Shown: positions 17,769-35,347 of the stretch, piece after piece
Layout of the letters: each line of letters begins with the position of its first letter
Numbering within the stretch: position 1 is the stretch's first letter
NCBI GenBank assembly: GCA_029260675.1
Contig: JAJDCV010000282.1
Span: 1-48,307 of the forward strand
Length of the DNA stretch: 48,307 bases
Direction of reading: 5' to 3'
DNA from: Phycisphaeraceae bacterium
GTDB lineage: Bacteria > Planctomycetota > Phycisphaerae > Phycisphaerales > Phycisphaeraceae
The notes under the pieces: generated by a model
The model's input: the letters and a program-made list of their open reading frames with translations, nothing else
Told to the model about the DNA's origin: nothing
Database searches by the model: none
Made by a program: the position numbers and the translations under genes

Positions 17769-17784
17769 TGCAAATGGCGTACCT
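17769..17784 (-). promoter_or_regulatory. sigma-54 type -24/-12 promoter
   Basis: Minus strand reads AGGTACGCCATTTGCA against the consensus TGGCACG-N4-TTGCW. The GG-N10-GC spacing is correct. It lies about 85 nt upstream of the tetrahaem ATG. Confidence 0.55.
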
Positions 17785-18066
17785 AAAGTAAAATGAGTCT
17801 TTTGATCCCCTGGTCGCCGTGTCAGACTGAAAAAACGACTTTCCTTGCCCCTTCTAGACCCCGGCATCCATAATTGAGAATGCACGGGCCGGCGATAGTC
17901 CATTCCCGAGAACCCCAACCTCGGGGCCTTGATTACACTTCCGGATTAATCCCGATGCGATTCAAACACCGCTCCAGGATCCGAGAAACCCCCTAAATCT
18001 CCAGGATTCTCAAGTCTACGCAATAGCTGCAACCCGGGGATCCGTGTCTGGATATGGCGGTTCACC

Positions 18067-19134
18067 TCACGGGCCGTCAGCTGTTTCAGCCGGGCCCAAA
18101 CCCTCTGCCGCCGTGCTCTTCTCAAAGGCGTTGCGGTAGGCATTCGATGCCTGCTCATACTCGCCCGCCTGCTGGTGGACCCGGCCCAGGAAGTAGAAGG
18201 CGTCGGCGGGGTCGGGGTTGATTTTCAGGGCCTCGGTCAGCGCGGTGCGAGCCTCGTCGAAACGTTCCAGCGCGACCAGCGCTCGTCCGCGCAGGGTTTG
18301 GATGCGCCAAGGGGGGACCAGGCCGGGCTCGAGCGCATCAAGAACCACCAGGGCCTCGGCGGGCTCGCCGATCATCAGATGGACCTGGGCCAGTGTCAGG
18401 CGGAGTTCAAGGTCGTCGGGGTTGGTGTCCAGCCCGCGTTTTAATTCTTCATGCGCGAGTTTGATCTGACCTTTTTCCAGGAGTCTCTGCGCCAGGTGCA
18501 GGTGGCGTGAGGCGACGTGGTTCGGGGTGCTCCCGACCGTGCCGTTGGTATCCAAGCGTTTCTTGAGTGCTTCGCTGTCGATCGTGCCCCGGGTAAATTC
18601 CAGGTAGGCCCGCATGTCTTTGGTATAGGACTCCCGCAGCCCCGGGAGGCGTGCGATGCGTTCGCCTTGGTCGTTGACGATGACGGTGCTGGGCCAGACG
18701 CGGACCGACATCAGGCCGGACGCTTCGTAATCCGGATCCACCACGACCGGCCAGGGCCACTTTTCCGACCCGGTTAGCTGGGCGGCACCGACCCCCGCGC
18801 CGTGCCCACTGACCACGGCGATGGGCTGCACATCCGCCCCGGTCGCCTCGTCGGTTAAAATCGCACGCAGCTGAGTCATCGCCTCGTCGCTGCGCGCCTG
18901 GTCGGCCATCACGAACAGAACGATGCTGATCTTCCCGGGCGCGGGCACCGAGACGTCTTTGTCGGCGGTGTCGGTCGCCCGCCAGCGGATGGGCTGAGGC
19001 GTTTCCGCCACGTCTTCCTGTCCGTATGCCGTGATGCCGGCGAACAGCGCGGCGAGACACGCGATCACGGGGTACAGCGTTCTCGGGTTGTGATTCGGAT
19101 TGGGTGTGTTGTGTGTCATGTTTGTTGCCCTCAC
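18067..19134 (-). CDS. membrane-anchored CXXC-less redoxin (TlpA-like fold) fused to TPR repeats
   Basis: The GTG at 19134 overlaps the upstream cytochrome stop (GTGA). An alternative ATG at 19119 has GAGGG upstream. The redoxin-like segment ISIVLFVMADQARSDEAM lacks the CXXC. The C-terminal half carries TPR-like repeats (...ALKINPDPADAFYFLGRVHQQAGEYEQA...). It is a paralogue of 28944..30008. Confidence 0.7.
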   Translation of the reverse strand: MRATNMTHNTPNPNHNPRTLYPVIACLAALFAGITAYGQEDVAETPQPIRWRATDTADKDVSVPAPGKISIVLFVMADQARSDEAMTQLRAILTDEATGADVQPIAVVSGHGAGVGAAQLTGSEKWPWPVVVDPDYEASGLMSVRVWPSTVIVNDQGERIARLPGLRESYTKDMRAYLEFTRGTIDSEALKKRLDTNGTVGSTPNHVASRHLHLAQRLLEKGQIKLAHEELKRGLDTNPDDLELRLTLAQVHLMIGEPAEALVVLDALEPGLVPPWRIQTLRGRALVALERFDEARTALTEALKINPDPADAFYFLGRVHQQAGEYEQASNAYRNAFEKSTAAEGLGPAETADGP

Positions 19135-20549
19135 TGGGCTTTAGGTTTGTAATCGACGGGCCTGACTCGATCGTAGGCCTTGGGCTTGTGGCATCCCGGC
19201 GAGCAGGAGCCGCCGGTTTCGGTTTGTTTGTAATTGATCGGCAGTTCCCACTTGCCGTAGGGCACAGACTCCCGCAGGTGCAGCGCAAGTGTGCTGGCGT
19301 GGACGCTGTGGCAGGCGCGGCAGCTTCGGCCACGTGGGTCCTTGTTGACGTGCAGGTAGTGCATATTCGTGCGGCCGTTTCGGAAACCGGTGAGCCCCTT
19401 GGCGTCGGGCGTGAGCACCAGCTGCTCGTCGTGACATTCGAAACACAAGCGGTATGACTCGATATCAAACGGCTGGTAGAACGTCGCGGGGTACTCGTCG
19501 ATCAAGAGTTTTGCGAACTCCGAACCGTGGACGTTGTGACAACCCCCGCAGCTCCCCTCGGCGACCGGGCCGTGCTTGATGAGGTCGGGGTCCTTGACTT
19601 CCGAAACCGACGCAACCGCCCTGCCGTCGTCCGTCGTGATGGGCTGATCGTGGCAGGTCAGGCAGAGATCGACGGGCTTGTCTTTCATGAGTTTTGCCAG
19701 GTCGCCGCCGTGGGGCGTGTGGCAGTTGACGCAGCCGCGTTCCTGTGTGACGGCGGAGTGCTGGTGCTTCGCCTCGCTGACGGCCTGCTTGATGTCCTCG
19801 TGGCAGGTCGTGCAAAGCTCGCCCGGGGCCTGCTTGACCAGCATGGGGAAGTCCGTTGCGTGGGCGTTGTGACAACCCAGGCAATCCTCTTGAGCCGGCT
19901 CGTGGACAAACCCGACCTCCGTGAGTTGCTGCCGCATCTCCATGTGGCAGCCGACGCACAACTCCATGCCCGTCTCGATCAACAGCTTGGGGTTCTTGGA
20001 TGCGTGCGGCTCGTGACACATCCCGCATGCCCCGGCGGCGACCGGGCCATGAACAAATTGCTTGTCGCCTACCACGTCCTGATGGCAAGATGCACACAGC
20101 TCGCTCATCGAAGGCTTCTTCAGTGAGTTGCGATCGAACCCGCCGTGGGGGTCGTGGCATCCTGTGCAGTCGCGCGTGACCAGCGGGTCGTGAAGCGTCT
20201 GGGCGTCTTCGACCTCGATCACGTGGCAGAAGGTGCAGGCATCCGCCTTCTCGCGCGCGGGAACGTAGCTGTGGGTTTTGGCGTCGGTGAGTGTGTGGCA
20301 GGCGTCGCAGGCGTTGACGTTTACCGGGCCGTGCAGCACGTCGTGGCGCTTGACGTTCGCGTGACAGTCCGCGGTGACGCAGCTGACCTGCTCGATCTCG
20401 GTGGTGGGCTTGGAGGGGGCTTGGGCAGCCAACTCCCCGGCGTTGGCTGGATCAGATGCGGGGGCCTGGGCGCGGAGCGTGGTCGCGATGCCCGCGAGTC
20501 CGATCGCCACGATCAACAAGAAGGCCGAGGTTAGGTGGTAGTACTTCAT
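19131..20549 (-). CDS. 15-haem-motif c-type cytochrome (paralogue 1)
   Basis: 13 CXXCH motifs plus an N-terminal CVTADCH (CX4CH) and a C-terminal GGSCSPGCH (CX3CH). It has a signal peptide. The ATG overlaps the upstream gene stop (ATGA). Confidence 0.85.
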   Translation of the reverse strand: MKYYHLTSAFLLIVAIGLAGIATTLRAQAPASDPANAGELAAQAPSKPTTEIEQVSCVTADCHANVKRHDVLHGPVNVNACDACHTLTDAKTHSYVPAREKADACTFCHVIEVEDAQTLHDPLVTRDCTGCHDPHGGFDRNSLKKPSMSELCASCHQDVVGDKQFVHGPVAAGACGMCHEPHASKNPKLLIETGMELCVGCHMEMRQQLTEVGFVHEPAQEDCLGCHNAHATDFPMLVKQAPGELCTTCHEDIKQAVSEAKHQHSAVTQERGCVNCHTPHGGDLAKLMKDKPVDLCLTCHDQPITTDDGRAVASVSEVKDPDLIKHGPVAEGSCGGCHNVHGSEFAKLLIDEYPATFYQPFDIESYRLCFECHDEQLVLTPDAKGLTGFRNGRTNMHYLHVNKDPRGRSCRACHSVHASTLALHLRESVPYGKWELPINYKQTETGGSCSPGCHKPKAYDRVRPVDYKPKAQ

Positions 20550-22174
20550 GAAGGGTCCCCATCTGTGGAGGTATCGCCGGGCCGGATCGTGGTCGGCGAC
20601 GGGTCAGCCGGTGGCGTTGCCGGGGGTGTCGCCGGGGGTGTCGGCTTGGGTGTCGGCCCACTGGAACGCCGGTAGGTTTTTTGTTCGTGGCATCCCGGTG
20701 AGCACGACCCGCCGTTCTCGGTCTTTGTGAAATTGATGGGCATGGCCCACTGCGAACCCTCGAAAGGCACGTCGGCGGCGATGTGGTCCGGGCGGTCGCT
20801 GCCGTGGATGTCGTGGCAGGCCTTGCAGGTCCGGCCTTTCTTGTCGCGATGGACGTGCAGGTAGTGCAGGTTCTGATCGCCCTCGCGGAAGCCGGTGAGC
20901 TGATCGGTGGTCTCGGTCAGCACCAGGTCGGCGCTGTGGCAGCTGAAGCACAGCGCGTAGTTAGTGAGGTCGAACGAGGCGTAGAAGGTGTCGGGGAAGG
21001 ATTGTCGCAGGAGGCGGGCGTTCTCGCCGCCGTGGACGCTGTGGCAGGCCGCGCAGTCCCCGGCTCGCACGGGCCCGTGCAGGAAACGGCGGTTCAGGGT
21101 CGACTGCATGTCGGCGATGGTCCGGCCGTCGGTCGCCTCGATGGGTTCGTTGTGGCATCGCATGCACAGGTGGTCGGCCCGGTCACGAAGCAGGTTCGGG
21201 CCGGCCGCGGCGTGTGGGTCGTGGCAGTTGGCACAGCCGTCTTCGATAAACAGCGCATCGTGCGATACCGGCTGCGATTTGATGCGCTCGGCCATCTGCT
21301 CGTGACAAGCGAAGCAGCTATCCGCAACCGGGGCGGGTAACTGATACGGGAACGCGCTGGTATGTGCGTCGTGACAACCGGTGCAGTTCTCTTTGGCGGG
21401 CTCGTGGATAAACGGCGAGTTCGCGAGCTTGACCTGGATACCCGTGTGGCAACTGAAACAGTGATCGGGCTGCTCACCCTGGCGCAGCAGGTTGCTTGCG
21501 TTGGCCTCGTGTGGTTGGTGGCAGACGGTGCACTGACCAGAAGCAAACGGGCCGTGGGCGTACTTCTGTAACGGTGTTTCGTGGCACGTCGCGCAGGTTA
21601 GTTCGATGCTCGGCTGTGTCAGCAGAAACTTGGCGTCGGACCGGTGCGGGTCGTGGCAGGCGACACAGCCTGAGTCCTCAATCGCCGCGTGCTGTTGTGT
21701 GCGTGCGCCGAGGACGGGATGGCAGAAGGTGCAGGTCTGGTTGCCGGCTCGTTTCATGGGGTAGACATGGGCACCGGCATCGGGCTCGTGGCAGGACTGG
21801 CAGTTGGCGACCGCAACCGGGCCGTGGACGTGCTTGGCGTTGACCAGGCCGGTGTGGCAGCCGGGCGTGACGCACGAAGCGTCTTCAGGCAGAGCCGTAG
21901 TCGGGCGGGGCAAAGACTCGACGGGGTCGGTCATCTGCAAGGCGTCTATACCGGCGGGGTCAGGGTGTTGGGTTTTAGTTCCGATGGGCGATTCGTAGTG
22001 CCCGGTTGACGCCGCGGCGGGCGCATCGGTCTTGCGTGCCGACCCGTCTGGGTCGCTCGGTTCTTCGTGCCCACAGCCCGAGAGCAATAGAAACAGGCAC
22101 ACACAAAGCAAACCCGGCGCGCATCGCCTCCACCTGCTGGGACCGGCTCGTGATTTAGCCGGGCGTTGGATCAC
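20546..22174 (-). CDS. 15-haem-motif c-type cytochrome lipoprotein (paralogue 2)
   Basis: The GTG start overlaps the upstream stop (GTGA). Lipobox LLLSGC. It has 13 CXXCH motifs plus CVTPGCH and GGSCSPGCH, and a Pro/Thr-rich tail PTPKPTPPATPPATPPADPSP. Confidence 0.85.
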   Translation of the reverse strand: MIQRPAKSRAGPSRWRRCAPGLLCVCLFLLLSGCGHEEPSDPDGSARKTDAPAAASTGHYESPIGTKTQHPDPAGIDALQMTDPVESLPRPTTALPEDASCVTPGCHTGLVNAKHVHGPVAVANCQSCHEPDAGAHVYPMKRAGNQTCTFCHPVLGARTQQHAAIEDSGCVACHDPHRSDAKFLLTQPSIELTCATCHETPLQKYAHGPFASGQCTVCHQPHEANASNLLRQGEQPDHCFSCHTGIQVKLANSPFIHEPAKENCTGCHDAHTSAFPYQLPAPVADSCFACHEQMAERIKSQPVSHDALFIEDGCANCHDPHAAAGPNLLRDRADHLCMRCHNEPIEATDGRTIADMQSTLNRRFLHGPVRAGDCAACHSVHGGENARLLRQSFPDTFYASFDLTNYALCFSCHSADLVLTETTDQLTGFREGDQNLHYLHVHRDKKGRTCKACHDIHGSDRPDHIAADVPFEGSQWAMPINFTKTENGGSCSPGCHEQKTYRRSSGPTPKPTPPATPPATPPADPSPTTIRPGDTSTDGDPS

Positions 22175-23718
22175 GGCTGCGCCTCGCTTGGGGTGGCATC
22201 GATCCGGGGCACGGATTTCAGTGCGTCCAGAGTGTATTTGTAGTTCTCGATCGAGACGTTGAGCAGGGCCGTCGCGTAGGTGACGTTGTGCACGCCGTGA
22301 CCGAGTTCGACCAGGCGGACATTGTGATCCGCGTCGTCCATGAGGCGTTGGAGCTTGAGAAGCTCATCGGGCGGTATCACCGCGGCAGCCAGATCCCCGC
22401 TTGCCAGTATTTGCTGCTGTTTGGTGTATGCCAGGTGCTCGCCGATCGTGTCACGCCACTCTTCGAGCACACCGCTGTAATGACCTTCATGGCAGTAATC
22501 ACAGGAGGCCTGGGCCGCGAGGTAGGTTTGCCCGGTGACCTCGGCGACTTCCTGGCTGAACTCACGCTGCTGGTGGCACGCAACGCAATCGACCTGGGCG
22601 CTATACATCGGGCTGGGCATGTCCGGCACGCCCCGGCCACCGATACCGCTGTACAAATTAGCCGGGCCGTTGTGCGACAGGTCGTGGCACTGGGCACAGC
22701 TGCTCTTCTCCCCGCCGACATGCGGGTCCGGCCCCGCCATCAACCCCCCCGTAGCCGCGAGCCCGGCCGTGAGGTGGTGCACGATCTGCACGTGGCAGCT
22801 GGAGCACTCGACCTTGTGATCGGTGATGTGCGTCTTGTGCATGAAGCTGGTCTCGCCGTAACGGGCAACCTGCGTCGCTTTGTTGTGGCAGGTCCAGCAC
22901 AGCTGCTTGGGCACGGCCCCGTCGCCCGATACCGCGTCGACATGACAGTTTTCACACGTCACACCACGGTCGATGTAGTCTTCGTGATTGAATACCCCTG
23001 TCGCGAGCTTGATCTCCGAAGCCGGTGCTTCGTGGCACGATCGGCATCCGCCCAGCGTCTGGTCGTCGCGCCCGTGTTCCAGGCCTTTGAAATGGCACAG
23101 GAAGCAGGTGTCCAGCGTCACGACCAGGTGCTGACCCTGCACGATCTGGGAGTGGCACGACACGCACCGCAGCTCCTTGCCCCGTCGAAGATCGGTCAGG
23201 TGCGGCGTGTGGTCGAACTTGATCGTGATCTCCGTGCCGCGCTGGGTTTGGATTGGCCAGTCGACTTTGCCTTCGAGCAGGCGTTGGCTGTGGCATTCCT
23301 CACGCATACACGAGCTGTCCCGGACCTCCGCGTGGGGCTTGGAGCCGTAGGTGTTGGTGATGTATTTCACGCCCTGGCTGGAGGCCTGCCACTTGCCTTG
23401 AAGCGTCTTCTCGATCCCCGGCTCGAAGTGGCACAGCACACACGCCACGTCTTTGTGCGTCGAGGTGTGCCAGGCCTGGTAATACGGCTCCATGATGTGA
23501 CATGACCGGCAGAAATCCGGCTGCATCGAGTACTCGGCAAAGCCCAACGACCCGACGACAAATCCCACTAATACCAACAACACCCATCCCCACCGGCTTG
23601 GTACGACGCGCAGCCATCGCCCTTCCCGCCGGCGCAAACCCAGCCACCGCCAGCCACGCAGGCGATGATCGGGAGCCGACACTTCTTCGATAGGACGATC
23701 CGAATTCTCTGCACACAT
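22171..23718 (-). CDS. membrane-anchored NapC/NirT/NrfH-type multihaem cytochrome (12 motifs)
   Basis: A single N-terminal TM segment (WGWVLLVLVGFVVGSLGF) is followed by FCRSCHIMEPYYQAWHTSTHKDVACVLCH, the classic NapC/NirT start. In total there are 11 CXXCH motifs plus CMREECH (CX4CH). Confidence 0.8.
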   Translation of the reverse strand: MCAENSDRPIEEVSAPDHRLRGWRWLGLRRREGRWLRVVPSRWGWVLLVLVGFVVGSLGFAEYSMQPDFCRSCHIMEPYYQAWHTSTHKDVACVLCHFEPGIEKTLQGKWQASSQGVKYITNTYGSKPHAEVRDSSCMREECHSQRLLEGKVDWPIQTQRGTEITIKFDHTPHLTDLRRGKELRCVSCHSQIVQGQHLVVTLDTCFLCHFKGLEHGRDDQTLGGCRSCHEAPASEIKLATGVFNHEDYIDRGVTCENCHVDAVSGDGAVPKQLCWTCHNKATQVARYGETSFMHKTHITDHKVECSSCHVQIVHHLTAGLAATGGLMAGPDPHVGGEKSSCAQCHDLSHNGPANLYSGIGGRGVPDMPSPMYSAQVDCVACHQQREFSQEVAEVTGQTYLAAQASCDYCHEGHYSGVLEEWRDTIGEHLAYTKQQQILASGDLAAAVIPPDELLKLQRLMDDADHNVRLVELGHGVHNVTYATALLNVSIENYKYTLDALKSVPRIDATPSEAQP

Positions 23719-23730
23719 AATGGATGACTC

Positions 23731-25926
23731 CTAGATCAAACCAAGCCCCGCCAGGACGATCAACGTGACCATCGCCAGCCCGATCGACATCGCCAATACA
23801 CCTATGACTAAAGAGGCCCTGCGCTGCCAAACCGGTGGCGTCTCCATACGCAGCGACTCCAGTTCGCCCGACTGCCTCAGCTGGCGGTATTCCATCGGCC
23901 GTTCGTGACGCAACTCGTCCTCGTCCACCACCCCGGTGAAGATCACATCATCCACCGGGAACTTCTCCGGGCGCAGATTCGCGTTAAAGAAGTGGATCGT
24001 AAAGATGAACCCCACCGCCAGCAGCGCTTCATACCCGTGCACGATGGTTGCGATGTTGAATCCCCACCCCGGGATGACGATCGAGAACACCGCGGGGAAC
24101 CAGAGCATCAACCCGGTGCCCCCGATGATGAAAGTCCCGACGATCTCGGCCCAGTAGTCGAACTTTTCCCAGTAGGTCCAACGGTCAAGCGCCGGCTTGC
24201 CCTTGCCGGTGAAGAACCAGCGGAACATCCCCAGGCAATCGGAGAAATCCTTGAGCCTGGGCAGGAGGGTGTGCGGGCCGGTGAGGAGTTTACGCGCCGG
24301 TTGCCGGCTGAATCGTTTGTAGATCCCCACGAAATGGATCACGAAATTCAAGCACAGGATGATCGCAAAGAGCCGATGCCAGAGCCCCGCGGCGTACCCC
24401 CCGCCCAGCATCACGGTCAACCCCTTGGCCCATCCCTGGTCGGAGAAGAACAAAGGCATCCCGGTCAGTGTCAGCCCGAAGAAGGTGATCGCGACCAGCG
24501 CGTGGTTCAGCCGGTTGATCTTGCGGAAACGCTTGATCGACTTGCCCTTGGCGGCGGTGTGCAGCTTCGCCTTGCGTGCGGTGTGTCGGCGGCGCTCGAT
24601 CAGCGACCGGATCAGCCACAGCACCGAGTGCACGCCGTAGAACACGAACGTGATGCTCATCAGGATCACGAAGTAGAGCCAGACGCCGTGGAGGATCGGG
24701 AAGTTCTCCCCGTCACGGTAATCGGCGTGCGGCATGAACTGTGCGAACTTGGCGTTGGCGGATTTGTGACAGGATCGGCAGGTGTCCACGAGGTTGTCCG
24801 CGTGAAGCCGGGACATCGGGTCGGCGACCGGCTGGATGTCGTGCGCCCCGTGGCAGTCGCTGCACCGGGCGGCCCGGCTGGAGCCCAGCTCGTTGACCTG
24901 CCCGTGATAACTCATCCGGTAGGTTTCGTAGAGCGAGGCCTTACCCCGCTTGTCGTTGTCGATGCGGTCGTGGCACTGACCGCACTCCCCGATGATGTCA
25001 CGCATAAACCCGGGGGTGGCGGCGTGGGTGATCGCGTGGGAGGCGTGGCAGTCGCTGCAGACCGGGGCGTTGGGGTCGCCTGCCGTGAGCTTTTGGCCGT
25101 GGATGCTGTTGGCGTAGACCTCCTCGATGCCGCGGTGGCATTGGCCGCAGGTTTCGGGGACCTGATTACGATGGATCTTTGAGGCCTCGTCGGCGGCGGG
25201 CCTGATTTCGTGCCCGCCGTGACAGTCGGCGCAGGTCGCGGCGACGATCAGCCCCGCCATCTTCACCGCCCGGCCGTGGACGCTCTGCATGTAGCTCTGA
25301 ACGTATTCGGTCTCATCGTGCCCGTTGGTTGTCTTCTCCTGGTGCTGGCTGTGGCAGCCACCGCAGAGATTGATGACGTTCAGCGGGTAGGTTTTCGACC
25401 GGCGGTCCGAGGACGGGTAGACGTCGTGCCCGCCGTGGCAATCGGCACAGGACGGCGCGCGGACGTCCCCGTCGGCGGCCGCCTCGGCATGGATGCCCCG
25501 GCGGTGTTCGGCCGCGGCCGGCTCGTGACAACTGGCCGTGCAACTGGCCGGCTCGAGTGTCATCGCGTGAGGCAAGACCTCCGCGTCCTGGTGGCAATCC
25601 GTGCATGCCAGCGCGGCGTGCGGGCCGTCCATAAGCGCATCAGGCGGCGTGAAAAGCGTTGGCCGGGATTCGGACTGACGATCCAGCAACATCGGGTCCT
25701 GCGGCGGCGCGACCATCGACCGGCGTTCCGATGGAGACAGGTCGGTGATCCGCCGTTGGCCGTGGCAGTCGTAGCAGCGGTCGTTCTGGGTCTGGGCCTG
25801 GGTCAACCTGACCGCCTGTGCCTGAGGCCAAGGCCCGGTCACCAGGAGAGCAACCATCGCCAGCAGGCCGGACGCGGCTAGACCGGCGGCGGTGGGATTG
25901 CTCGAGATCGGTTTCGGCCTTGGCAT
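23731..25926 (-). CDS. CbcL-like fusion: periplasmic multihaem c domain (11 motifs) plus C-terminal b-type cytochrome membrane domain (HydC/FdnI-like)
   Basis: Signal peptide, then 10 CXXCH motifs plus CTASCH. About six TM helices follow, with conserved His residues (NHALVAITFFG, LWHRLFAIILCLNFVIHF, IVHGYEALLAVGFIFTIHFFN). Confidence 0.8.
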   Translation of the reverse strand: MPRPKPISSNPTAAGLAASGLLAMVALLVTGPWPQAQAVRLTQAQTQNDRCYDCHGQRRITDLSPSERRSMVAPPQDPMLLDRQSESRPTLFTPPDALMDGPHAALACTDCHQDAEVLPHAMTLEPASCTASCHEPAAAEHRRGIHAEAAADGDVRAPSCADCHGGHDVYPSSDRRSKTYPLNVINLCGGCHSQHQEKTTNGHDETEYVQSYMQSVHGRAVKMAGLIVAATCADCHGGHEIRPAADEASKIHRNQVPETCGQCHRGIEEVYANSIHGQKLTAGDPNAPVCSDCHASHAITHAATPGFMRDIIGECGQCHDRIDNDKRGKASLYETYRMSYHGQVNELGSSRAARCSDCHGAHDIQPVADPMSRLHADNLVDTCRSCHKSANAKFAQFMPHADYRDGENFPILHGVWLYFVILMSITFVFYGVHSVLWLIRSLIERRRHTARKAKLHTAAKGKSIKRFRKINRLNHALVAITFFGLTLTGMPLFFSDQGWAKGLTVMLGGGYAAGLWHRLFAIILCLNFVIHFVGIYKRFSRQPARKLLTGPHTLLPRLKDFSDCLGMFRWFFTGKGKPALDRWTYWEKFDYWAEIVGTFIIGGTGLMLWFPAVFSIVIPGWGFNIATIVHGYEALLAVGFIFTIHFFNANLRPEKFPVDDVIFTGVVDEDELRHERPMEYRQLRQSGELESLRMETPPVWQRRASLVIGVLAMSIGLAMVTLIVLAGLGLI

Positions 25927-26010: not shown

Positions 26011-26026
26011 TGCATACCCCATGCCA
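26011..26026 (-). promoter_or_regulatory. sigma-54 type -24/-12 promoter
   Basis: Minus strand reads TGGCATGGGGTATGCA with correct GG-N10-GC spacing. It lies about 85 nt upstream of the ATG at 25926. Confidence 0.55.
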
Positions 26027-26074
26027 AGCGGCAGCGACTTAAAGCCAGCTATAAACGTATGTTAATCCCGGGCG

Positions 26075-26090
26075 TTCTCATGGTTGAGAA
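26075..26090. promoter_or_regulatory. perfect palindrome TTCTCA-TGGT-TGAGAA (extended GCGTTCTCATGGTTGAGAATGC), candidate upstream activator site
   Basis: Read directly. It is centred roughly 80-85 nt upstream of the predicted start of the 26011..26026 sigma-54 promoter. Confidence 0.4.
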
Positions 26091-26177
26091 TGCGTAGGGC
26101 CCCTCGCTCCCGATCGCAAGAGACCGGAAACAGACCTGCGGGTACGCCGCTATGCCATTGTGATGATGGGCGGTGGG

Positions 26178-27808: not shown

Positions 27809-27834
27809 CGGTCACTCCTGGACTCGTGAGCCTC

Positions 27835-28494: not shown

Positions 28495-28503
28495 CACGGT
28501 TCC

Positions 28504-28947
28504 TTACACAGAGATAATGATCTTGCCGTCTTTGACCTCGAAGGGGATGGGCTTGAGCGGCTCGTTCACGGGCCCGCTGACCACGCCCCCGTCCGAGCCG
28601 AACACCGCGCCATGACAGGGGCAGTGGAACTGGGCATCGCTGCTGACCCAGTTCACGGCACAACCCAGGTGCGGGCAAGAAGCGCTAAAAACGTGGGGCC
28701 CATCCGCGGTCGCCAGGATGATGACCTGCAGGCCGCGGTAAGCCTCGTACCTCGCCTGACCCTGCACGAGCTGATCCAGCGGGATCTCCAGCGGCTTGCC
28801 TTCACCGATGCGCGAGGGTTGGCTGGTCACGAACGATGCCACCGGATACGCGACCATCGCCGCGGACGCAGCGGTCATCGCACCGATGCACGCCCGGCAG
28901 AACGTCCGTCGGCCGTTGTGTTGTTCACATGTCTTGTCACAGCTCAT
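28504..28947 (-). CDS. Rieske [2Fe-2S] protein with twin-arginine signal
   Basis: CPHLGC...CPCHG Rieske boxes and an N-terminal NGRRTFCRA Tat-like motif. The ATG overlaps the upstream stop (ATGA). Confidence 0.85.
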   Translation of the reverse strand: MSCDKTCEQHNGRRTFCRACIGAMTAASAAMVAYPVASFVTSQPSRIGEGKPLEIPLDQLVQGQARYEAYRGLQVIILATADGPHVFSASCPHLGCAVNWVSSDAQFHCPCHGAVFGSDGGVVSGPVNEPLKPIPFEVKDGKIIISV

Positions 28948-30008
28948 GGTGTCGGCTCCAACTCGTAGTAGTCCAAAAGGAGTTCGGCGGCCCGCTTGAA
29001 GCTGGCGGCGGCCGCCTCGCTGTCCCCGGCCTGTTCCTGGATCAGGCCCAGCAGGTAATGCGCCCGCGGTTCGGAGGGGTTCTCCGTGAGCACCTTCCGC
29101 GTCAGCTTCTCCGCCTCAGGCAGTTCGTCACCGCCGCGGCGGGTCATCACAAACGCCAAGCCCAGCGCCGCGTCTGACGCCTTGGGATCCTGTTCCAAGG
29201 CCCGGTTGAAATGCTGCTCGGCCTCGGAGAGCCTGCCTCGCCGCAGCTTGAGTGTTCCCATCCCCACCCACGCGGCCGTCTGCTTCGGATCCAATTCAAG
29301 CGACTCGGCGTACTTCTGCTCCGCTAACGCCACCAACCCCCGGGCGGAGAGCTGGCCGGCCAGCATCGTCAGCCGGCGGGCCCGGGCCTGGTCTTCGGTC
29401 AACCCGGAATCGGCCTGCGGGTGACGCCTAGCCTCGAACTGCTCGGCCGACAGCTTCCCCGCCGCCATCAGCAGCGCGTCAGCCATTCGGTCCGAAAAAT
29501 CATTTGTCAGCGCGGCGACGGCGTGAACGATTCGACCCTCGGCATCAATCACCGCCACGCTCGGCAGCACCGCCACACGGTAGGCATCAAACGCATCTCG
29601 TTTGGCGTCGTGCAGGACGGCGATCGGGGACACGTCGGCCCCCCCGCCTTCCGTCCCCTCGGCTTGCTCTAAACGGGTGACAATCAACATCGCATCGATC
29701 GGCTCACCGCGGAACCGTTCATCGGCCAGAACCTCTTTCAACTGGGCGCAGGCACGCAAGGTTCCGCTGTGGTACAGCTCCCCGAATACCAGAACCACCA
29801 TCCGGCCGCGCAGCGAATCGGTGCTGATGACTTCCCCCGCCTCTTCTGTGAACTGGATTTTCGGGGCATCGTCGCCCTGCCGCAGGTGGGTCACCGCCAA
29901 AGCGGGATCGACCCAGGCCGTTAAAGCCAGCAGGGCCAGCCCGACAACGGCCCAGGCAGGGACCAAGCCGGCTCGGATATCAGGCGCATAGCGCTTGGCA
30001 AAGATCAC
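28944..30008 (-). CDS. membrane-anchored CXXC-less redoxin (TlpA-like fold) fused to TPR repeats (paralogue of 18067..19134)
   Basis: The GTG start overlaps the upstream cytochrome stop (GTGA). No in-frame ATG lies before the TM segment. The redoxin-like MVVLVFGELYHSGTLRAC lacks the CXXC. TPR-like repeats are present (AEQKYAESLELDPKQTAAWVGMGTLKLRRGRLSEAEQHFNRALEQDPK...). Confidence 0.7.
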   Translation of the reverse strand: MIFAKRYAPDIRAGLVPAWAVVGLALLALTAWVDPALAVTHLRQGDDAPKIQFTEEAGEVISTDSLRGRMVVLVFGELYHSGTLRACAQLKEVLADERFRGEPIDAMLIVTRLEQAEGTEGGGADVSPIAVLHDAKRDAFDAYRVAVLPSVAVIDAEGRIVHAVAALTNDFSDRMADALLMAAGKLSAEQFEARRHPQADSGLTEDQARARRLTMLAGQLSARGLVALAEQKYAESLELDPKQTAAWVGMGTLKLRRGRLSEAEQHFNRALEQDPKASDAALGLAFVMTRRGGDELPEAEKLTRKVLTENPSEPRAHYLLGLIQEQAGDSEAAAASFKRAAELLLDYYELEPTP

Positions 30009-31447
30009 TGCGAACCTCCTGTGTTGTAAGCCGTCTCGCCCGCCGGCTTATCAGTCGCACCGCCGGCTTGTACCGCCTCGCGGGTGTAGGACCGGGTGTC
30101 GTGGCAGCCCGGCGAGCAGCTCCCGCCGGTCGGCGTCGTCTGGAACTTGATCTCGAGCAGCCAATCGCTGTCGCCGAACGGGACCGAATCGCGGATGTGG
30201 AACGGGTTGCGGGATGCGTGGACCTCGTGGCAGGCCCGGCAGGTCCGACCCTTCTTCTGATTGACGTGGACCCAGTGCAGGTTCAGCTCGCCTTCTCGGA
30301 ACCGCGTGAGCCCCTTGCCGTGACGGTCCTCAACCAGATCGGGCTGGTGGCAGGTGAAGCATAACCCGTAACGCTCAATGGTAAACGGGGCATAAAACTG
30401 GGGGGGGTAATCCTTGACAAGCATGTTGGCCCGGTCGCCTGTGTGAGGCTGGTGGCAGACGGTGCAGCTATCCTCTCGGATCGGGCCGTGGTGATCCGGG
30501 TTGTCCGCGAGCAGTTCCGCCATGTCGGTCAGCGTCCGGCCATCTTCTGTCTGGATCGGTTTGTCGTGACAGCTCAGGCACATCTGGGTCTGATCCGCCC
30601 GTTGCAGCTTGGGTAGCGGCGAGTTGTGCGGCGCGTGGCAGCCCAGGCACCCGCCGGATTCGGTCATGGCCCCGTGGACCACCGGGGCGCCCGCCAGCTG
30701 CTCCTGTATCTGTGTATGACAGCTGAAGCACAGGCCCGGGGCCTCCTGATTCAGTTGGTACTGGAAGTCGGAGGCATGGGCGTCGTGGCAGTCGGTGCAG
30801 CCGTCCTTGACCGGCGCATGGGTGTGCCGCTGCTGTCCAGGATCACCCTTGAGGTCCTGGCCGTGGCAGGTCAGACACAGGGCCTGCGGTTTATCGACCA
30901 GCAGGCTGGGCTCCCACGAGGAATGCGGCTCGTGGCAGAGGATGCAGGCCCCGGACGCAACAGGGCCGTGCTTGAACTTCTTCTGGGAAAAACCGTCTTG
31001 TTTGTGGCAACTCACACACAGACCACGCGTCGGGTCGTCGACCAGCATCATCTGGTAGTCCGACCCGTGCGGGTCGTGGCACTGGGTGCATCGGCCCTGT
31101 TCAACCGGGGCATGGATCACGTCACGATGCTCCAGCGTGTGGCAGGTCTGACACAATTGATCGCCTGGCAAAGTGAGCTTGAACGTGTGCTGGGATTCCG
31201 AGAGGTATTCGTGACAGGCCTCGCACTTACCCTGAGCGACCGGGCCGTGCGTGACCTTGGATGTGCCGACCCCCGCGTGGCAGTTGACGCTCTGACAGGT
31301 ATCGGTCTTGGTGGTGGGTCTGGGCTCCGGGGTCTCGCCCCGAAGCTGACCGAACCCGCCGGCAACCAGAACGATCCACAAGCAAGCCACGCCGCAGCGA
31401 CGCATGGTAGCGCGCCGTCGTATCGAGTCGATCAGTTTATCCGCCAT
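30005..31447 (-). CDS. 15-haem-motif c-type cytochrome (paralogue 3)
   Basis: 13 CXXCH motifs plus an N-terminal CQSVNCH (CX4CH) and a C-terminal GGSCSPGCH (CX3CH). The C-terminal roughly 110 aa are collinear with the two other paralogues. Confidence 0.85.
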   Translation of the reverse strand: MADKLIDSIRRRATMRRCGVACLWIVLVAGGFGQLRGETPEPRPTTKTDTCQSVNCHAGVGTSKVTHGPVAQGKCEACHEYLSESQHTFKLTLPGDQLCQTCHTLEHRDVIHAPVEQGRCTQCHDPHGSDYQMMLVDDPTRGLCVSCHKQDGFSQKKFKHGPVASGACILCHEPHSSWEPSLLVDKPQALCLTCHGQDLKGDPGQQRHTHAPVKDGCTDCHDAHASDFQYQLNQEAPGLCFSCHTQIQEQLAGAPVVHGAMTESGGCLGCHAPHNSPLPKLQRADQTQMCLSCHDKPIQTEDGRTLTDMAELLADNPDHHGPIREDSCTVCHQPHTGDRANMLVKDYPPQFYAPFTIERYGLCFTCHQPDLVEDRHGKGLTRFREGELNLHWVHVNQKKGRTCRACHEVHASRNPFHIRDSVPFGDSDWLLEIKFQTTPTGGSCSPGCHDTRSYTREAVQAGGATDKPAGETAYNTGGSQ

Positions 31448-31597: not shown

Positions 31598-31613
31598 CGC
31601 ACATCGTGTGCCA
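31598..31613 (-). promoter_or_regulatory. sigma-54 type -24/-12 promoter
   Basis: Minus strand reads TGGCACACGATGTGCG with correct GG-N10-GC spacing. It lies about 150 nt upstream of the ATG at 31447. Confidence 0.5.
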
Positions 31614-31664: not shown

Positions 31665-31680
31665 TTCCTAATCTTGGGAA
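31665..31680. promoter_or_regulatory. degenerate palindrome TTCCTA-ATCT-TGGGAA
   Basis: It has the same half-site spacing as 26075..26090 and a similar distance to the adjacent sigma-54 promoter (centre about 85 nt upstream of the predicted start). Confidence 0.25.
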
Positions 31681-31720
31681 CTTCCTGGGAGGAGTTTGTC
31701 TTGTGATTAGGACAAACCCG

Positions 31721-31745
31721 GCGGGGCAGGAAGGACCTGTCCCGC
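31721..31745 (-). terminator. stem-loop downstream of the histidine kinase gene (possible intrinsic terminator)
   Basis: 10-bp stem (gcggggcagg / cctgtccccgc side, one G-U pair) with a 5-nt loop, about 45 nt after the stop at 31790. On the minus strand it is followed by CGGGUUUGUCC and a second 7-bp hairpin (31694..31717). Confidence 0.4.
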
Positions 31746-31789
31746 TCGGCTGTGGATGAAACAAAGGGCTTCCCCCGGGGCGCTGGGTG

Positions 31790-33124
31790 TCAATCTCGTC
31801 TGATATCCGGCTTCATCACCAACCCTTGCCTGATAGGCAGGCGGATCGTCGCGGTGACGCCTTGGCCGGGTCGGTTGGTGAATTCAATGTGTCCGCCCTG
31901 ATTACGGATGAGGTTGTAGCTGATCGCCAGGCCCAGCCCGGTCCCCTTGCCCACGGGCTTGGTGGTGAAGAAAGGTTCGAAGACCCGGGCCAGGTGCTTG
32001 GGGTCGATCCCCGGGCCGTTGTCACTGATCCAGACCCTGCACGCCTGCCCGTCGTAGGCCGTGCCGATGGTCAGCCTTGGGGCGGTCACATCGTCCAGCG
32101 CATCGAGCGCGTTGAACAGCAGGTTGGTCAGCACCTGCTGCAGCGCGTGGGACTGGACCTCGATGCCCGGATCGTCGTCGGCGAATTGCTTCTGGATCGT
32201 GACGGCGCGCTGGCGGTGGTCGAAGCGGACCATCTGAAGCGCCGACTCCACCACGCTGTTGATCGGGACGTGCTCCCACTGGTAGTCCGTCGGGTGGGCA
32301 AAATCGGTGAGTTGCTGGACGATCTGCTTGATCCGCTGGACCTGCTGCCGCAGGGCGTCGATGTTCTCGGGCTTGATGTGGCGCTCGTTGCGTTGCATCA
32401 GTTGCAGCACGCCGTCCATGCTGGCAAGCGGGTTGGAGACCTCGTGCGCGACGCCGGCCGCCATCTGCCCCAGCCCGACCATCTTCTCCTGCTGGATCAT
32501 CGCCTGCTGTTGCCGGCGCAGGGTCTTGACCAGGATGCGGTTTCGGCGGTTTTGTGCGATCAGCCTGCCGCGGTGCCGGCGTAGCGTTGAGGTGATGTGG
32601 TTGCTCAGGTAAACGGTCACGGTCAAGGTGACGATCCAGCCGATCAGGACCAGGCGGTGCTCCAGCGTCAGTGGCCAGCTGCCGGTCAACTCCAGGCTTA
32701 ACGCCAGCAGCAGCACCGCCGCCGCCATGCCGCCGTAGGCCTGCCTCGGGGCCAGCAACATGCTGGTGAAGACCATATGGAAGACGAAGAAACCCAGCAG
32801 CGGGCTATGCGCGCCGCCGGTCCAGGCACAAAGCAACGCGAGGCACGCCAGATCGGGCAGGATGTGCAGCCACACAAACATACCGCCGGGTTCGGGGTGT
32901 GAACGCAAGGAGTGACTGACACTCAGCCAAAGCACGTTGTTGTAGGCGAGGATCGCCAAGCCCACCCACGTGATCGAGTAGGCCTTGTCGTGCCACTGCA
33001 ACCAGACGGCGTCCAGCAGCGACCCCAGGACTACCGCCGCGCCGGCGACCCAGCGCAGACCAACCAGCCACCTGAGCTGGTTGGTCATGAGCCTGCTGGG
33101 CTGTATCGGTTTCGCTTCCGCCAT
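31790..33124 (-). CDS. sensor histidine kinase with a six-TM N-terminal domain
   Basis: H box [13 protein letters not shown] box [17 protein letters not shown]1 [10 protein letters not shown]2 [13 protein letters not shown]. The N-terminal roughly 190 aa are hydrophobic helices with no large periplasmic loop. Confidence 0.85.
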
Positions 33125-33144
33125 ATGCTTTACCTGCCCGGGGT

Positions 33145-34197
33145 TTAAGACCCCGCAGCGGCGGCCGGTCCGTCCTCCCGGATCGACTCCCGCAGGTCCA
33201 GCATCTTAACCCCGTCCGTGTAATCAGTCAGCACGACACGCCGGAGTTGCTTCAGCGAGCGGATGACCTGGGCCATCCGCTGAAGGTTGTCGTGGATCTG
33301 CCCCAGGTTCTTCTCCAGAGCCACATCCGATCCAGACCGCCGGCGGAGCAGTGTCAGTTGCAGCTCGATCGTGGCGATCGCGTTGTTCAGTTCGTGGTTA
33401 AGGGTCAGCGCCATCTGCTGGAGCGCCTGGACCCTGCGGAGCTCGTTTTCCTGGAGCTTCTCGGCGAGGTTGTTATACGCACGGGCCAGCTCATCAAATT
33501 CGTCTTGCTGGCCGACCGTGACCCGGTGCGCGAAGTTTTCCTGGGCGAGTTCCCGGCTGGCGTGGACCAGCCGGGCGACCGGTCGCAGGACCATGCCCGC
33601 GGCCCGCAACATCAGCAGGATCGAGCCATTGATCACGAGCAGGAAACCGATCGCGATGGACACGACCAGCCAGCGGAACCGCCCGGTCAGTTTCGATTGC
33701 TCGGCCTGGGCATGCCCCTGGACGTGCCGGGCGATGCGTAGCAGGCTCTTTCGCATCTGGGACGCGGCGTCCAGCGCCGCGAGGTTGTGGTGCCGGGCCA
33801 GCTCTCGGTCCTGTGAAGTCGCCAGGATGCCTACCCGGGACTCGAAGCCATCGATCCGGCTGACCAGGTCTTCGTAGTCTCGACGGATCTCCATCTCGTC
33901 GAGTACGTAGTGCGAGCCGATCAAATCGGAGAGCCGACGCATCGACTCCACCGCGTCGATCAGCCCGTCGAGGTGGTGCTGCCGGCCCGTCTGCAAGGCG
34001 TAAAGCTCGACCTCTATCCCCGAGAGCGTGGTGCTTAATTCGTTGACCTGGTTGACCGCGACCGAGGCCCGGTTGTGCAGGTGGTCCAGGTCCACGAAGA
34101 CGCGCTGAAGTGACCACAACGCCGCGACAGCCAACACCATCAGCAGCGCGGTCAGCGAAAAGAGGATGAGTAGAAGTTTGTGGCGAAGCATGGTCAC
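33145..34197 (-). CDS. two-TM sensor-like protein with HAMP and DHp (HisKA-like) domains but no ATPase domain
   Basis: TM1, a roughly 140-aa periplasmic segment and TM2 (WLVVSIAIGFLLVINGSILLML), then a HAMP-like linker and LNHELNNAIATIE (H-box-like). The protein ends about 70 aa later with no N/G1/G2 boxes. The GTG at 34197 overlaps the upstream stop. An ATG lies at 34191. Confidence 0.7.
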   Translation of the reverse strand: MTMLRHKLLLILFSLTALLMVLAVAALWSLQRVFVDLDHLHNRASVAVNQVNELSTTLSGIEVELYALQTGRQHHLDGLIDAVESMRRLSDLIGSHYVLDEMEIRRDYEDLVSRIDGFESRVGILATSQDRELARHHNLAALDAASQMRKSLLRIARHVQGHAQAEQSKLTGRFRWLVVSIAIGFLLVINGSILLMLRAAGMVLRPVARLVHASRELAQENFAHRVTVGQQDEFDELARAYNNLAEKLQENELRRVQALQQMALTLNHELNNAIATIELQLTLLRRRSGSDVALEKNLGQIHDNLQRMAQVIRSLKQLRRVVLTDYTDGVKMLDLRESIREDGPAAAAGS

Positions 34198-35252
34198 GGC
34201 CCCTCGGATGACTCAGTTGACGCCGGCGGCGATGGCTCGGGGTGTGCATCGACGGCCGCCTGGGTGTGCGTCGCGTCGCTGGGGACACGGGGGGGGGCAT
34301 CAGGGGAACCAAGTCTTCCCCACCCCTCGCCAAGCTGTCCGGACATGTCGTGCACGGCGTCGTATTCGTCGGTACCGCAAGGGACGAAACGTTCCGCCCC
34401 AAACATCGATAGGGCCTGCCGCCCCGCCTCTTCCTCGTGCATACGCAGAAGAGCACGCAACAACTGCTCCGTCTGGCTATCGTCCAGGTCACGGCGCACG
34501 ATCAAAGCGTTGTTGGGCACCGCTTCGCTGGACACCAGCCGGCGGAACCTGCTCCCCGTGTGCCTGGACTCGAAGGCATCGATCCGCAGGTCCTTGGCGG
34601 CACCGGCATCGACCCGACCGCTGAAGACCTCCTCGATCGCCTGATCGTGCGTCCCGACCCAGCGCATCACGACGGCATCATCCCCGGCAAGCATGCCGCC
34701 CCGTGCCAGGGCATAGATCGGGAACAAGTGCCCCGCCGTTGTCGTTCGAACCATCGCGATCGACCGGCCGGCCAGGTCGTCCAGGGTTTGGATCGGTGAG
34801 TCGTCACGGACAAATATCACGCCCCGGTAGGTCGTCACGCCGTCCGCCGTCTGCGGCTTAACCAGAACCCTGGCCTGCAGCTGATCCAGCGTCAGCGTCG
34901 CCACCATAGACCCCATGAACGCGCCGTCGATCCGGCCCCTGGCCATGTCGTTCAACGCCCCGTGGTAGGTATTGGAAGTCACCAGTTCGACTGGCCGATC
35001 CAGGGCGTCCGCGAGGTAGTCCGCCAAAGCCCGGTAGCGCTGACGCTGCGCGAAGATGTCGCGTTCGGGTATCAGTCCCAAGTAGAGCTCTGCCTGGTCG
35101 GCGGCTCCCGCCGAGCCTGCACCACCGCGGCGCTCCGAAGCGGACAACCCGGCGGGAGCTCGGCTGAGCCAAAACACCAGGGCTAACACCAACAACGCCA
35201 GCGTGATACTCAGGGCCGTGGTTGAAATACGCATGCGACCGATCGACATCAT
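34194..35252 (-). CDS. PhnD-like (phosphonate-type) periplasmic substrate-binding protein, membrane-anchored
   Basis: N-terminal TM/signal segment, then LYLGLIPERD...YRALADYL...GRIDGAFMGS...YRGVIFVRDDSPI...LAGRSIAMV..., the pattern of the PhnD/phosphonate-bd SBP family. No ABC permease or ATPase genes are adjacent. Confidence 0.65.
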   Translation of the reverse strand: MMSIGRMRISTTALSITLALLVLALVFWLSRAPAGLSASERRGGAGSAGAADQAELYLGLIPERDIFAQRQRYRALADYLADALDRPVELVTSNTYHGALNDMARGRIDGAFMGSMVATLTLDQLQARVLVKPQTADGVTTYRGVIFVRDDSPIQTLDDLAGRSIAMVRTTTAGHLFPIYALARGGMLAGDDAVVMRWVGTHDQAIEEVFSGRVDAGAAKDLRIDAFESRHTGSRFRRLVSSEAVPNNALIVRRDLDDSQTEQLLRALLRMHEEEAGRQALSMFGAERFVPCGTDEYDAVHDMSGQLGEGWGRLGSPDAPPRVPSDATHTQAAVDAHPEPSPPASTESSEGP

Positions 35253-35331
35253 TCACATCCCGTTGCTATATATAGACGTGACATCGTTCTGAAGTACACC
35301 TACAAACACCGCGCCAGACGGGGGGGTCGCT

Positions 35332-35347
35332 TGGCATCGGGTTTGCA
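35332..35347 (+). promoter_or_regulatory. sigma-54 type -24/-12 promoter
   Basis: Plus strand reads TGGCATCGGGTTTGCA, matching the consensus positions of TGGCACG-N4-TTGCA except two, with correct spacing. It lies about 60 nt upstream of the ATG at 35408. Confidence 0.6.

Follow-up and report, generated by a model that had tools for sequence, protein, structure and literature searches.

A predicted sigma-54 regulon joining haem synthesis, haem attachment and multihaem cytochromes in a Phycisphaerae planctomycete

Are genes that lie side by side and together serve the production of multihaem cytochromes also switched on together, and if so, by what? This question is raised by a stretch of 48,307 nucleotides (nt), hereafter called the window, from a Phycisphaeraceae bacterium (NCBI GenBank assembly GCA_029260675.1, contig JAJDCV010000282.1, positions 1 to 48,307, forward strand). 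Pfam and NCBIfam profile searches, which were used to assign its gene content, reveal a single theme over the whole window: haem synthesis, Ccm, multihaem cytochromes and NHL-repeat proteins. A sequence-only reading had proposed that four sigma-54 promoters of the -24/-12 type place the cytochrome operons and the haem-synthesis genes in one regulon with a locally encoded NtrC-type activator. We find that all four sites behave like real promoters, in that elements of their type recur before orthologous genes in diverged Phycisphaerae, but also that they are not the only ones: a fifth site is well supported and two weaker candidates exist. On balance, the window is probably a cytochrome-production island of a Phycisphaerae planctomycete, laid out as a sigma-54 regulon.

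Comparisons were made with loci that carry the labels L002 to L083; L083 is the cultured Fontivita pretiosa, L018 is the OFTM326 genome, and L002 and L082 both belong to the OFTM41 genome. The cytochrome b gene used as a query retrieved 37 syntenic loci, nearly all of them from Planctomycetota and mainly from Phycisphaerae (Phycisphaeraceae and Tepidisphaerales), with a few metagenome bins labelled otherwise. Within the window, the plus-strand unit (35408..39909) consists of a ygbA-like gene (35408-35788), whose Pfam family is described as 'nitrous oxide-stimulated promoter', an AhbD-like radical S-adenosylmethionine (SAM) protein gene (35868-37133; NCBIfam AhbD score 436 against a cut-off of 500), an AhbC/NirJ1-like radical SAM protein gene (37256-38521; AhbC 479 and NirJ1 486 against a cut-off of 650) and the activator gene (38530-39909). 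It had been described as a ygbA-like, ahbCD and activator operon; these genes are all present, but their order by best NCBIfam match is ygbA, ahbD-like, ahbC-like, activator. Three units lie on the minus strand: an operon for a 15-haem cytochrome, a TlpA-TPR protein, a Rieske protein, a split cytochrome b and a pentahaem cytochrome (26178-31447), an operon for CbcL-like and NapC-like proteins, two 15-haem cytochromes and a TPR protein (18067-25926), and a tetrahaem gene with 4 haem motifs (17066-17686). The count of 15 haems for the cytochrome at 30005-31447 is the sum of 13 CXXCH and 2 CX3-4CH motifs. Three starts were corrected relative to the longest open reading frame (ORF), namely those of ccmE (8543; ORF 8127-8654), the ahbC-like gene (37256, by alignment with L082; ORF 37178-38521) and the ahbAB fusion (1087; ORF 92-1315). 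To judge from the profile matches, the ahbAB fusion, the ahbC-like and the ahbD-like gene are candidates for the genes of the Ahb route of haem b synthesis. An Rfam search of the whole window returned no known RNA family.

The four proposed promoters are P1 (TGGCATCGGGTTTGCA, 35332-35347, plus strand), upstream of the ygbA-like unit, P2 (TGGCACACGATGTGCG, 31598-31613, minus), upstream of the 15-haem cytochrome operon, P3 (TGGCATGGGGTATGCA, 26011-26026, minus), upstream of the CbcL-like operon, and P4 (AGGTACGCCATTTGCA, 17769-17784, minus), upstream of the tetrahaem gene, with transcription possibly continuing into 10123-16861. The 16-mers read back exactly at these coordinates and strands, each with the GG-N10-GC spacing and fitting TGGCACG-N4-TTGCW, and the proposed distance of 60 to 150 nt to the first ATG agrees with the measured 61, 151, 85 and 83 nt for P1 to P4, respectively. 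Scoring of some 96,600 positions in the window with a sigma-54 weight matrix, which is our own approximation of the published consensus frequencies, ranked them first (P3, 16.7 bits), second (P1, 16.1 bits), fifth (P4, 13.4 bits) and eighth (P2, 11.2 bits). Against dinucleotide shuffles of the window, there were 8 matches of at least 11 bits versus 7.0 expected, 5 of at least 13 bits versus 1.8, and 2 of at least 16 bits versus 0.19. It is the location of the matches, and not their total count, that is non-random. Intergenic DNA makes up 6.5% of the window and contains all four sites, each being the best match of its own gap and oriented toward the next gene; put otherwise, they are the best match in 4 of the 14 largest intergenic gaps. 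The expected number of such intergenic matches is about 0.2 to 0.45 versus the 4 observed (P about 1e-3 to 1e-4 by our own Poisson estimate from the shuffles). Matches are thus not equally frequent in coding DNA, their intergenic density being about 14 times higher, and the regulon idea is left standing by this comparison.

Conservation gives the same picture. Elements of the -24/-12 type recur before orthologous cyt480, CbcL/NapC-like and ygbA genes in diverged Phycisphaerae, where they stand out as conserved islands while the surrounding intergenic DNA has diverged (alignments of 52-70% mean identity); upstream of CbcL (a NapC-like gene in the L007 clade) and of ygbA, they are present in every genome that has the arrangement. 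P1 is conserved upstream of ygbA in nine loci (L007, L008, L010, L011, L012, L027, L081, L082 and L083). For P2, a site of at least 10 bits was found upstream of cyt480 in 19 of 32 loci, for example TGGCACGCAGTATGCA in L018 (16.7 bits) and a 16.8-bit site in L003, versus 6 of 35 loci for the intra-operon control gene cyt319. For P3, the positions TGGCA.G..GT.TGCA are invariant in a four-genome alignment of 52% mean identity, and two upstream inverted repeats and an AT-rich block are invariant islands in the same alignment. P1, P2, P3 and the additional promoter P5, described below, are conserved in multiple lineages, and P4 in one other genome only.

Do these promoters also share an enhancer, as a common activator would lead one to expect? 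A tandem motif, made of a strong proximal palindrome resembling ATTCTCA-N4-TGAGAAT and a weaker site 32-33 bp further upstream, precedes P2, P3, P5 and, weakly, P4. Upstream of P2, the proximal site B (TTCCCAAGATTAGGAA, 31665-31680) has its centre 61 nt upstream of the -24 GG and lies 33 bp, centre to centre, from site A (GTCCTAATCACAAGAC, 31698-31713). Upstream of P3, site B (TTCTCAACCATGAGAA, 26075-26090) is centred 58 nt from the -24 GG and 32 bp from site A (CTCTTGCGATCGGGAG, 26107-26122), and reaches 21.5 bits with a palindrome matrix trained on other genomes. The pattern TTCYCR-N4-YGRGAA, with at most one mismatch, occurs 6 times in the window versus 1.7 expected (4 of the 6 intergenic), and the matrix derived from other genomes only yields 5 window matches of at least 14 bits versus 0.37 expected (4 of the 5 intergenic). 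Of the 22 proximal sites tested in the window and its relatives, 20 have their best second site, among 90 offsets, at precisely 32 or 33 bp on the side away from the promoter. Palindromes of the P2 type were found upstream of cyt480 orthologues in L002, L003, L007, L008, L010 to L012, L018 and L027. An enhancer at about 80-150 bp upstream is therefore present for P2, P3 and P5, weak for P4 (two sites 32 bp apart, TTCTCAATTATGGATG at 17865-17880 and TTCTCGGGAATGGACT at 17897-17912, of 3.3 and 0.5 bits, the proximal one centred 90 nt upstream of the -24 GG) and absent for P1. The P4 of L018 is preceded, at a distance of 174 nt, by a strong palindrome, TTCTCAGATACAGGAA.

Between the P3 enhancer and the -24 element lies the AT-rich block (26040-26070; ATTAACA...TATAGCTGG.TTTA; TAACA...TATAGCT), conserved in four genomes (alignment columns ~137-165). 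It resembles a site for integration host factor with two mismatches, a similar AT-rich stretch precedes P5, and the block may be a DNA-bending element. A perfect palindrome elsewhere in the window, TTCTCGCGCGCGGGAA (20248-20263), was judged to be a chance occurrence; it is GC-rich and lies inside a cytochrome gene with no promoter nearby. A palindrome-like match where the Fontivita activator gene begins (L083, 10014) was likewise set aside as a coding by-product, as it corresponds to the codons of the conserved ILIVED peptide.

The fifth promoter, P5 (TGGCACTTGCTTTGTG, 8582-8597, minus strand), had escaped the sequence-only reading and appears well supported by comparison of orthologous regions. 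It carries GT at -12 and lies before ccmE, whose start we place at 8543 because all CcmE homologues are 138 amino acids long. The promoter is present in all four orthologous regions, as TGGCACCGGCTTTGTG (L077), TGGCATCGACTTTGTG (L078), TGGCATCGGCTTTGTG (L079) and a canonical 17.2-bit TGGCACTGGTTTTGCA (L080); an initial register, TGGTTTGGCACTTGCT (8587-8602), was dropped in favour of TGGCACTTGCTTTGTG, the sole register conserved in L077-L080. Its enhancer comprises site B (TTCTCAAAGTTGAGAG, 8700-8715), centred 112 nt upstream of the -24 GG, and site A (TTCCCGGTGACAGGAC, 8732-8747) 32 bp away, with an AT-rich stretch between enhancer and promoter. Site B is kept in L077-L080 and site A, at 32-33 bp, in L077-L079; site A is degenerate in L080, where the best second site lies at 19 bp. 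P5 probably drives an operon (92..8543, minus) of ccmE, ccmF, a gene for a 442-amino-acid protein, ccmA, ccmB, ccmC, a ccmD-like ORF (2409-2588), hemA (1120-2412) and the ahbAB fusion (92-1087), on which the AhbA and AhbB models of NCBIfam exceed their curated cut-offs. The gaps in this operon are at most about 35 nt. We extend it through hemA and ahbAB because the ccmD-like ORF, unannotated and 59 amino acids long, overlaps the stop of ccmC as well as the start codon of hemA, and because ahbAB follows hemA after 32 nt. The placing of haem synthesis in the same set as the cytochromes gains strength from P5, which adds hemA and ahbAB to ahbCD. The ccmD-like overlap would also couple translation of glutamyl-tRNA reductase (hemA) to the Ccm operon.

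Which protein might bind the palindromes? As the sequence-only reading had it, the window encodes one enhancer-binding protein, the single protein with a sigma-54 interaction domain (38530-39909). Its REC, AAA+ and HTH_8 domains score well above the Pfam cut-offs (PF00072, PF00158, PF25601 and PF02954), and it reaches no NCBIfam equivalog cut-off, the best being AtoC (448 versus 714). It has GAFTGA at 218, the Walker A motif GESGTGKE at 171 and the phospho-acceptor D53 in LTDIRMP; nine orthologues share F220-T221-G222-A223, Walker A and D53 without change, and L007 and L011 have S as the second residue of GAFTGA. The helix-turn-helix (HTH) sequence IGVSSLYRKLDEL is conserved among the orthologues. 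Homologues with 85-93% identity occur on metagenome contigs and in two complete genomes, and the Fontivita pretiosa protein is 75% identical. Adjacent to the activator operon, and divergent from it, lies a sensor operon (31790..35252, minus) for a PhnD-like periplasmic binding protein (34194-35252), a HAMP-HisKA protein (33145-34197) and a HisKA-HATPase kinase (31790-33124). The NCBIfam model for the redox-sensing kinases ActS/PrrB/RegB matches the kinase along its entire length, with a score well short of the cut-off (129 versus 350 bits), and the Fontivita orthologue has a PilS-like six-helix membrane domain; these matches hint that it senses membrane or quinone redox state.

Regulators and motif travel together. 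In L003, the L007 clade, L081 and Fontivita L083, the neighbours of the activator gene are ygbA and/or the sensor genes, together with the cyt480-Rieske-cytochrome b operon. All three sensor genes lie beside the activator gene and the cyt480 operon in L003, L081 and L083, and beside cyt480 in L002 and L018; in the L007 clade the HAMP and kinase genes remain, with no match to the binding protein (PBP352). Among loci with orthologous activator or kinase genes, 9 of 9 have a palindrome upstream of cyt480, versus 2 of 22 among those without (Fisher P = 2.7e-6), in a table whose presence side is partly circular, as the palindrome matrix was built from eye-picked sites, and whose loci represent only three or four independent lineages. 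Sigma-54 sites without a palindrome were found in L009, L021 and L025. The Pirellulales and Sedimentisphaerales versions of the operon have neither regulators nor palindrome, and a sigma-54 match above 10 bits only in L028 (11.4 bits). From the co-occurrence and the conserved HTH we infer that the local activator binds the palindromes. A separate case is L005 (Tepidisphaerales, 4689-6532), where a different activator (36% identity) and a kinase lie directly upstream of the same cytochrome operon, which has a 17.2-bit sigma-54 promoter (TGGCATTCCGCTTGCA) but no TTCTCA palindrome; here, the regulator appears to have been swapped and the sigma-54 dependence kept.

Taken together, we think it rather probable that the window contains a canonical sigma-54/enhancer regulon, wider than proposed, in a new lineage and with a new motif and gene set. 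In the mechanism that we propose, the three-part sensor (PhnD-like binding protein, HAMP-HisKA protein and membrane HisKA-HATPase kinase) would detect a periplasmic or redox signal, and the kinase would phosphorylate D53 of the activator. Activator dimers would then occupy the strong proximal palindrome and the weaker site 32-33 bp upstream, form an ATPase oligomer and, by DNA looping, remodel the sigma-54 holoenzyme waiting at the -24/-12 promoters. The predicted targets are the 15-haem cytochrome, the Rieske/cytochrome b complex and the pentahaem cytochrome from P2; the CbcL-like and NapC-like quinol dehydrogenases and two 15-haem cytochromes from P3; the tetrahaem cytochrome, and perhaps the downstream NHL-repeat/cytochrome cluster, from P4; ccmEF-ABCD-hemA-ahbAB from P5; and ygbA, the ahbD-like and ahbC-like genes and the activator from P1, probably via a module about 485 bp downstream of it. 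The outcome would be the joint induction of haem b synthesis (sirohaem route), haem attachment and about 100 haem-binding sites.

Several observations weigh against this reading. Since the totals of matches lie near the shuffle expectation, P2 (11.2 bits) and P4 (13.4 bits), taken singly, are within chance for the window. P4 is the least certain of the four: its sequence GGTAYGCCRTTTGC stands out as conserved from poorly conserved surroundings in a comparison with one genome, L018, because a metagenome scan for tetrahaem-gene orthologues returned two short contigs only, which were uninformative; moreover, its enhancer has good left half-sites only in the window genome. At P5, as at the two weaker candidates P1' and P6, the near-invariant C at -12 is replaced by T. 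The gene for sigma-54, rpoN, is not encoded in the window; it has been reported in other planctomycetes (Rhodopirellula baltica). A 6-4-6 palindrome could in principle bind a regulator of another family, and the two limits of the co-occurrence table given above also count here. Finally, seven genomes all lack a palindrome upstream of P1, and in four of them (L007, L008, L010 and L011) there is none within -700 to +900 nt. The proposal that all cytochrome and haem operons form one regulon under the local activator is supported for P2 and P3 and weakly for P4, which share the motif, and draws on conserved gene order and on the co-occurrence of motif and regulators, but it does not extend with the same assurance to P1, whose membership is less certain because P1 lacks an upstream enhancer and the nearest motif is about 485 bp downstream.

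What, then, controls P1? The enhancer search around it (-700 to +900 nt) returned downstream sites only. The relevant module follows the ygbA stop (35796..35832) and consists of the half-site TGAGAC (35796-35801) and the palindrome TTCTTAAAGTTGAGAA (35817-35832), which scores 20.6 bits with the matrix trained on other genomes only. The module may act on P1 as an enhancer from downstream, or else as an operator at a distinct promoter serving ahbD, ahbC and the activator. The second option leads to an explanation that we consider unlikely: the sigma-54 promoters would be real without forming one regulon, P2 to P5 answering to the local activator and P1 to another enhancer-binding protein, for example a nitric oxide- or stress-responsive one, and the post-ygbA palindrome would be an operator by which the local activator represses or tunes a sigma-70-type promoter of ahbD-ahbC-activator. 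Besides the missing upstream palindromes, this would account for the position of the module, which is separated from the ahbD ATG by 35 nt that contain no sigma-54 site, and which overlaps a sigma-70-like GTGACA-17-TAAATT sequence (35790-35818); it also suits the Pfam description of the ygbA family, and the fact that where the ygbA-ahbDC-activator unit moved to another contig, in OFTM41, the module moved along with it and not with the sensor operon. Dual roles of this kind have precedent, as NtrC represses glnAp1 and glnLp. However, the sigma-70-like match is a single one (1 found versus 1.6 expected in shuffles) and is not obviously conserved in L081, whereas the module keeps the half-site and palindrome geometry (31 bp between right half-sites versus 32-33 bp centre to centre) and stands at the same position, about 450-485 bp downstream of P1, in three other loci, L081 (9895), L082 (7323) and Fontivita L083 (12740), a distance constant over three lineages. 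NtrC-type activators can act from downstream sites.

The same module bears on autoregulation. The sequence-only reading had concluded from the placement of the activator gene that the activator stimulates its own synthesis. The gene does follow the ahbC-like gene after 8 nt, with no convincing terminator from P1 onward, and its transcription from P1 and/or P6 is plausible on the gene order of the window; but other loci do not keep this order. The L007 clade has the activator gene on the opposite strand and lacks a sigma-54 site before it (best score at most 8.3 bits), and in L081 the gene directly follows ygbA. The palindrome before ahbD could equally provide negative feedback.

A second alternative, quite improbable in our view, is that the palindromes are bound by an unlinked regulator, such as a CRP/FNR-type or other dimeric redox regulator, the local activator controlling only its neighbours or something else. 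CRP/FNR-family sites, too, are typically 16-bp inverted repeats whose core spacing is 4 bp (or 5-6-5), and L016 and L019 have palindromes without an activator gene within 10 kb. Yet the sites come as tandem pairs 32-33 bp apart, about 80-140 bp upstream of the inferred sigma-54 starts, and not at -41.5 or -61.5 of sigma-70-type promoters; they track the orthologous activator and kinase genes and are gone where a different activator is adjacent; and in the L007 clade the activator gene is divergent from the site-bearing P2 region. That the -24/-12 matches are chance occurrences in GC-rich DNA, with ordinary sigma-70-type promoters serving the operons, is very improbable: the total of matches of at least 11 bits does equal the shuffle expectation, and a 15.9-bit match inside hemA (1172-1187) is evidently spurious, but the four sites are intergenic, correctly oriented, conserved where their flanks are not and accompanied by a conserved enhancer architecture, and the window also encodes an intact sigma-54 activator. 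Sigma-70 and terminator consensus scans of the window gave counts no higher than shuffles. The hemA match (TGGCACAGACACTGCA, minus strand), at the 3' end of hemA before ahbAB, was rejected as a chance coding match, being unconserved in L077 or L080.

Returning to the single regulon, two further candidates concern its central region. P1' (TGGCGCGGTGTTTGTA, 35301-35316, minus strand, GT at -12) is aimed at the sensor operon and stands back-to-back with P1. Its block, TGGCGCG-N4-TTTG(T/C/A)A, is conserved in the window, L007, L008, L010-L012 and L027, and also in L081, L002 and L018; the -12 element is a canonical TTGCA in L007, L012 and L027, weaker in Fontivita (TGGTCCGCATTTTGAT) and degenerate in L082, which has no adjacent sensor operon. 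The -24 GG dinucleotides of P1 and P1' (35301-35347) are about 18 bp apart, which would leave barely enough room for two holoenzymes next to each other. The -12 element of P1' in the L007 clade lies about 13 nt before the annotated ATG, which would imply a near-leaderless mRNA. P6 (CGGCACGGGGTTTGTT, 37167-37182, plus strand), a weak candidate 74 nt before the corrected ahbC-like ATG, was found only with a matrix tolerant of T at -12; the corresponding block in L082 is CGGCACGCGGTTTGTA, with flanks 84% identical, so that its conservation is uninformative. P5, P1' and P6 all read TTTGT instead of TTGC at -12, and orthologous sites alternate between C and T (P5 has GT in four genomes, at about 9945-9965 in L077-L079, and GC in L080; P1' has GC in L007, L012 and L027). 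GT may therefore be a lineage-tolerated variant that gives possibly weaker or leakier promoters.

The OFTM41 genome offers further observations on this region. Its intact ygbA-ahbD-ahbC-activator unit (L082) is on a separate contig from the sensor-cytochrome cluster, beside integrase and phage-like genes (PF00589, DUF3987), which suggests displacement by a rearrangement or mobile-element event. On L002 (2200-2520), an apparent truncated ygbA remnant and a decayed palindrome precede the sensor operon, in a messy alignment. A similar decayed palindrome occurs in L018 (OFTM326; 2230-2480), with no ygbA remnant demonstrated there.

The mechanism is a textbook one; lineage, motif and gene set are new. 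In glnAp2, the NtrC sites are centred at -140 and -108, that is, 32 bp apart. Here, as there, two dimer sites about three helical turns apart lie upstream of GG-N10-GC, activation would be driven by phosphorylation, and the activator gene is downstream in a regulated operon (glnALG), while NtrC sites double as operators at sigma-70 promoters. The differences are a TTCTCA-N4-TGAGAA motif in place of TGCACC-N5-GGTGCA, targets in respiration and haem production instead of nitrogen assimilation, GT at -12 in P5 (supported) and in P1' and P6 (candidates), and one module about 485 bp downstream of the nearest promoter. The closest functional parallel is BccR (GSU0598) of Geobacter sulfurreducens, a sigma-54-dependent response regulator that is divergent from, and required for, the bc-type cytochrome operon cbcBA (bioRxiv 10.1101/2021.04.15.440034). 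Both cases involve a REC-AAA+-HTH regulator beside a quinol-oxidising b/c-type cytochrome operon with a sigma-54 promoter, divergent in the L007 clade, and cytochromes that would be induced on demand. This arrangement, a sigma-54 response regulator adjoining a b/c cytochrome operon, is found in L003, the L007 clade and L083, the window being one operon removed. We claim a resemblance of function and not membership. The phyla differ (Planctomycetota versus Desulfobacterota); unlike in the BccR case, several operons plus Ccm, hemA and Ahb genes are concerned, the sensor consists of a PhnD-like binding protein and two kinase-type proteins, and the enhancer motif is defined in silico only.

Cytochromes are also part of the RpoN regulon of G. 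sulfurreducens (PMC2725144), and a sigma-54 regulon study of Desulfovibrio vulgaris exists as well (PMC4641369). Our literature search found no comparable sigma-54 regulon analysis for Phycisphaerae. The one Phycisphaerae genome survey consulted, which deals with carbon degradation and standard respiratory complexes (PMC11266412), makes no mention of the island or its regulation; a text search gave no match for 'sigma', 'heme' or 'Rieske'. Co-regulation of haem synthesis, Ccm, the Rieske/cytochrome b complex, CbcL-like and NapC-like dehydrogenases and 15-haem cytochromes would point to an inducible anaerobic or extracellular respiration. Supposedly polysaccharide-degrading bacteria might then have a hidden respiratory lifestyle, testable in the cultured Fontivita pretiosa (CP191258), which has the same locus. 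More tentatively, one sensor and one activator might serve, across much of Phycisphaerae, as the master switch of an anaerobic, possibly extracellular, electron-transfer apparatus that runs from hemA and the sirohaem route through Ccm to about 100 haem sites, tuned by the back-to-back P1 and P1', the downstream enhancer and GT at -12. The regulon would be a natural example of co-regulated cofactor supply, cofactor attachment and apoproteins, and the defined palindrome and promoters provide handles for genome-wide regulon prediction. With a canonical mechanism, its value lies in physiology and annotation and not in a new principle.

Downstream of the tetrahaem gene, the region 10123-16861 holds a conserved cluster, also present in L019, L021 and L078-L080, of multihaem cytochromes, two NHL-repeat beta-propellers and a 682-amino-acid protein (12865-14913) that has no Pfam match; this cluster might be an outer-membrane electron conduit.

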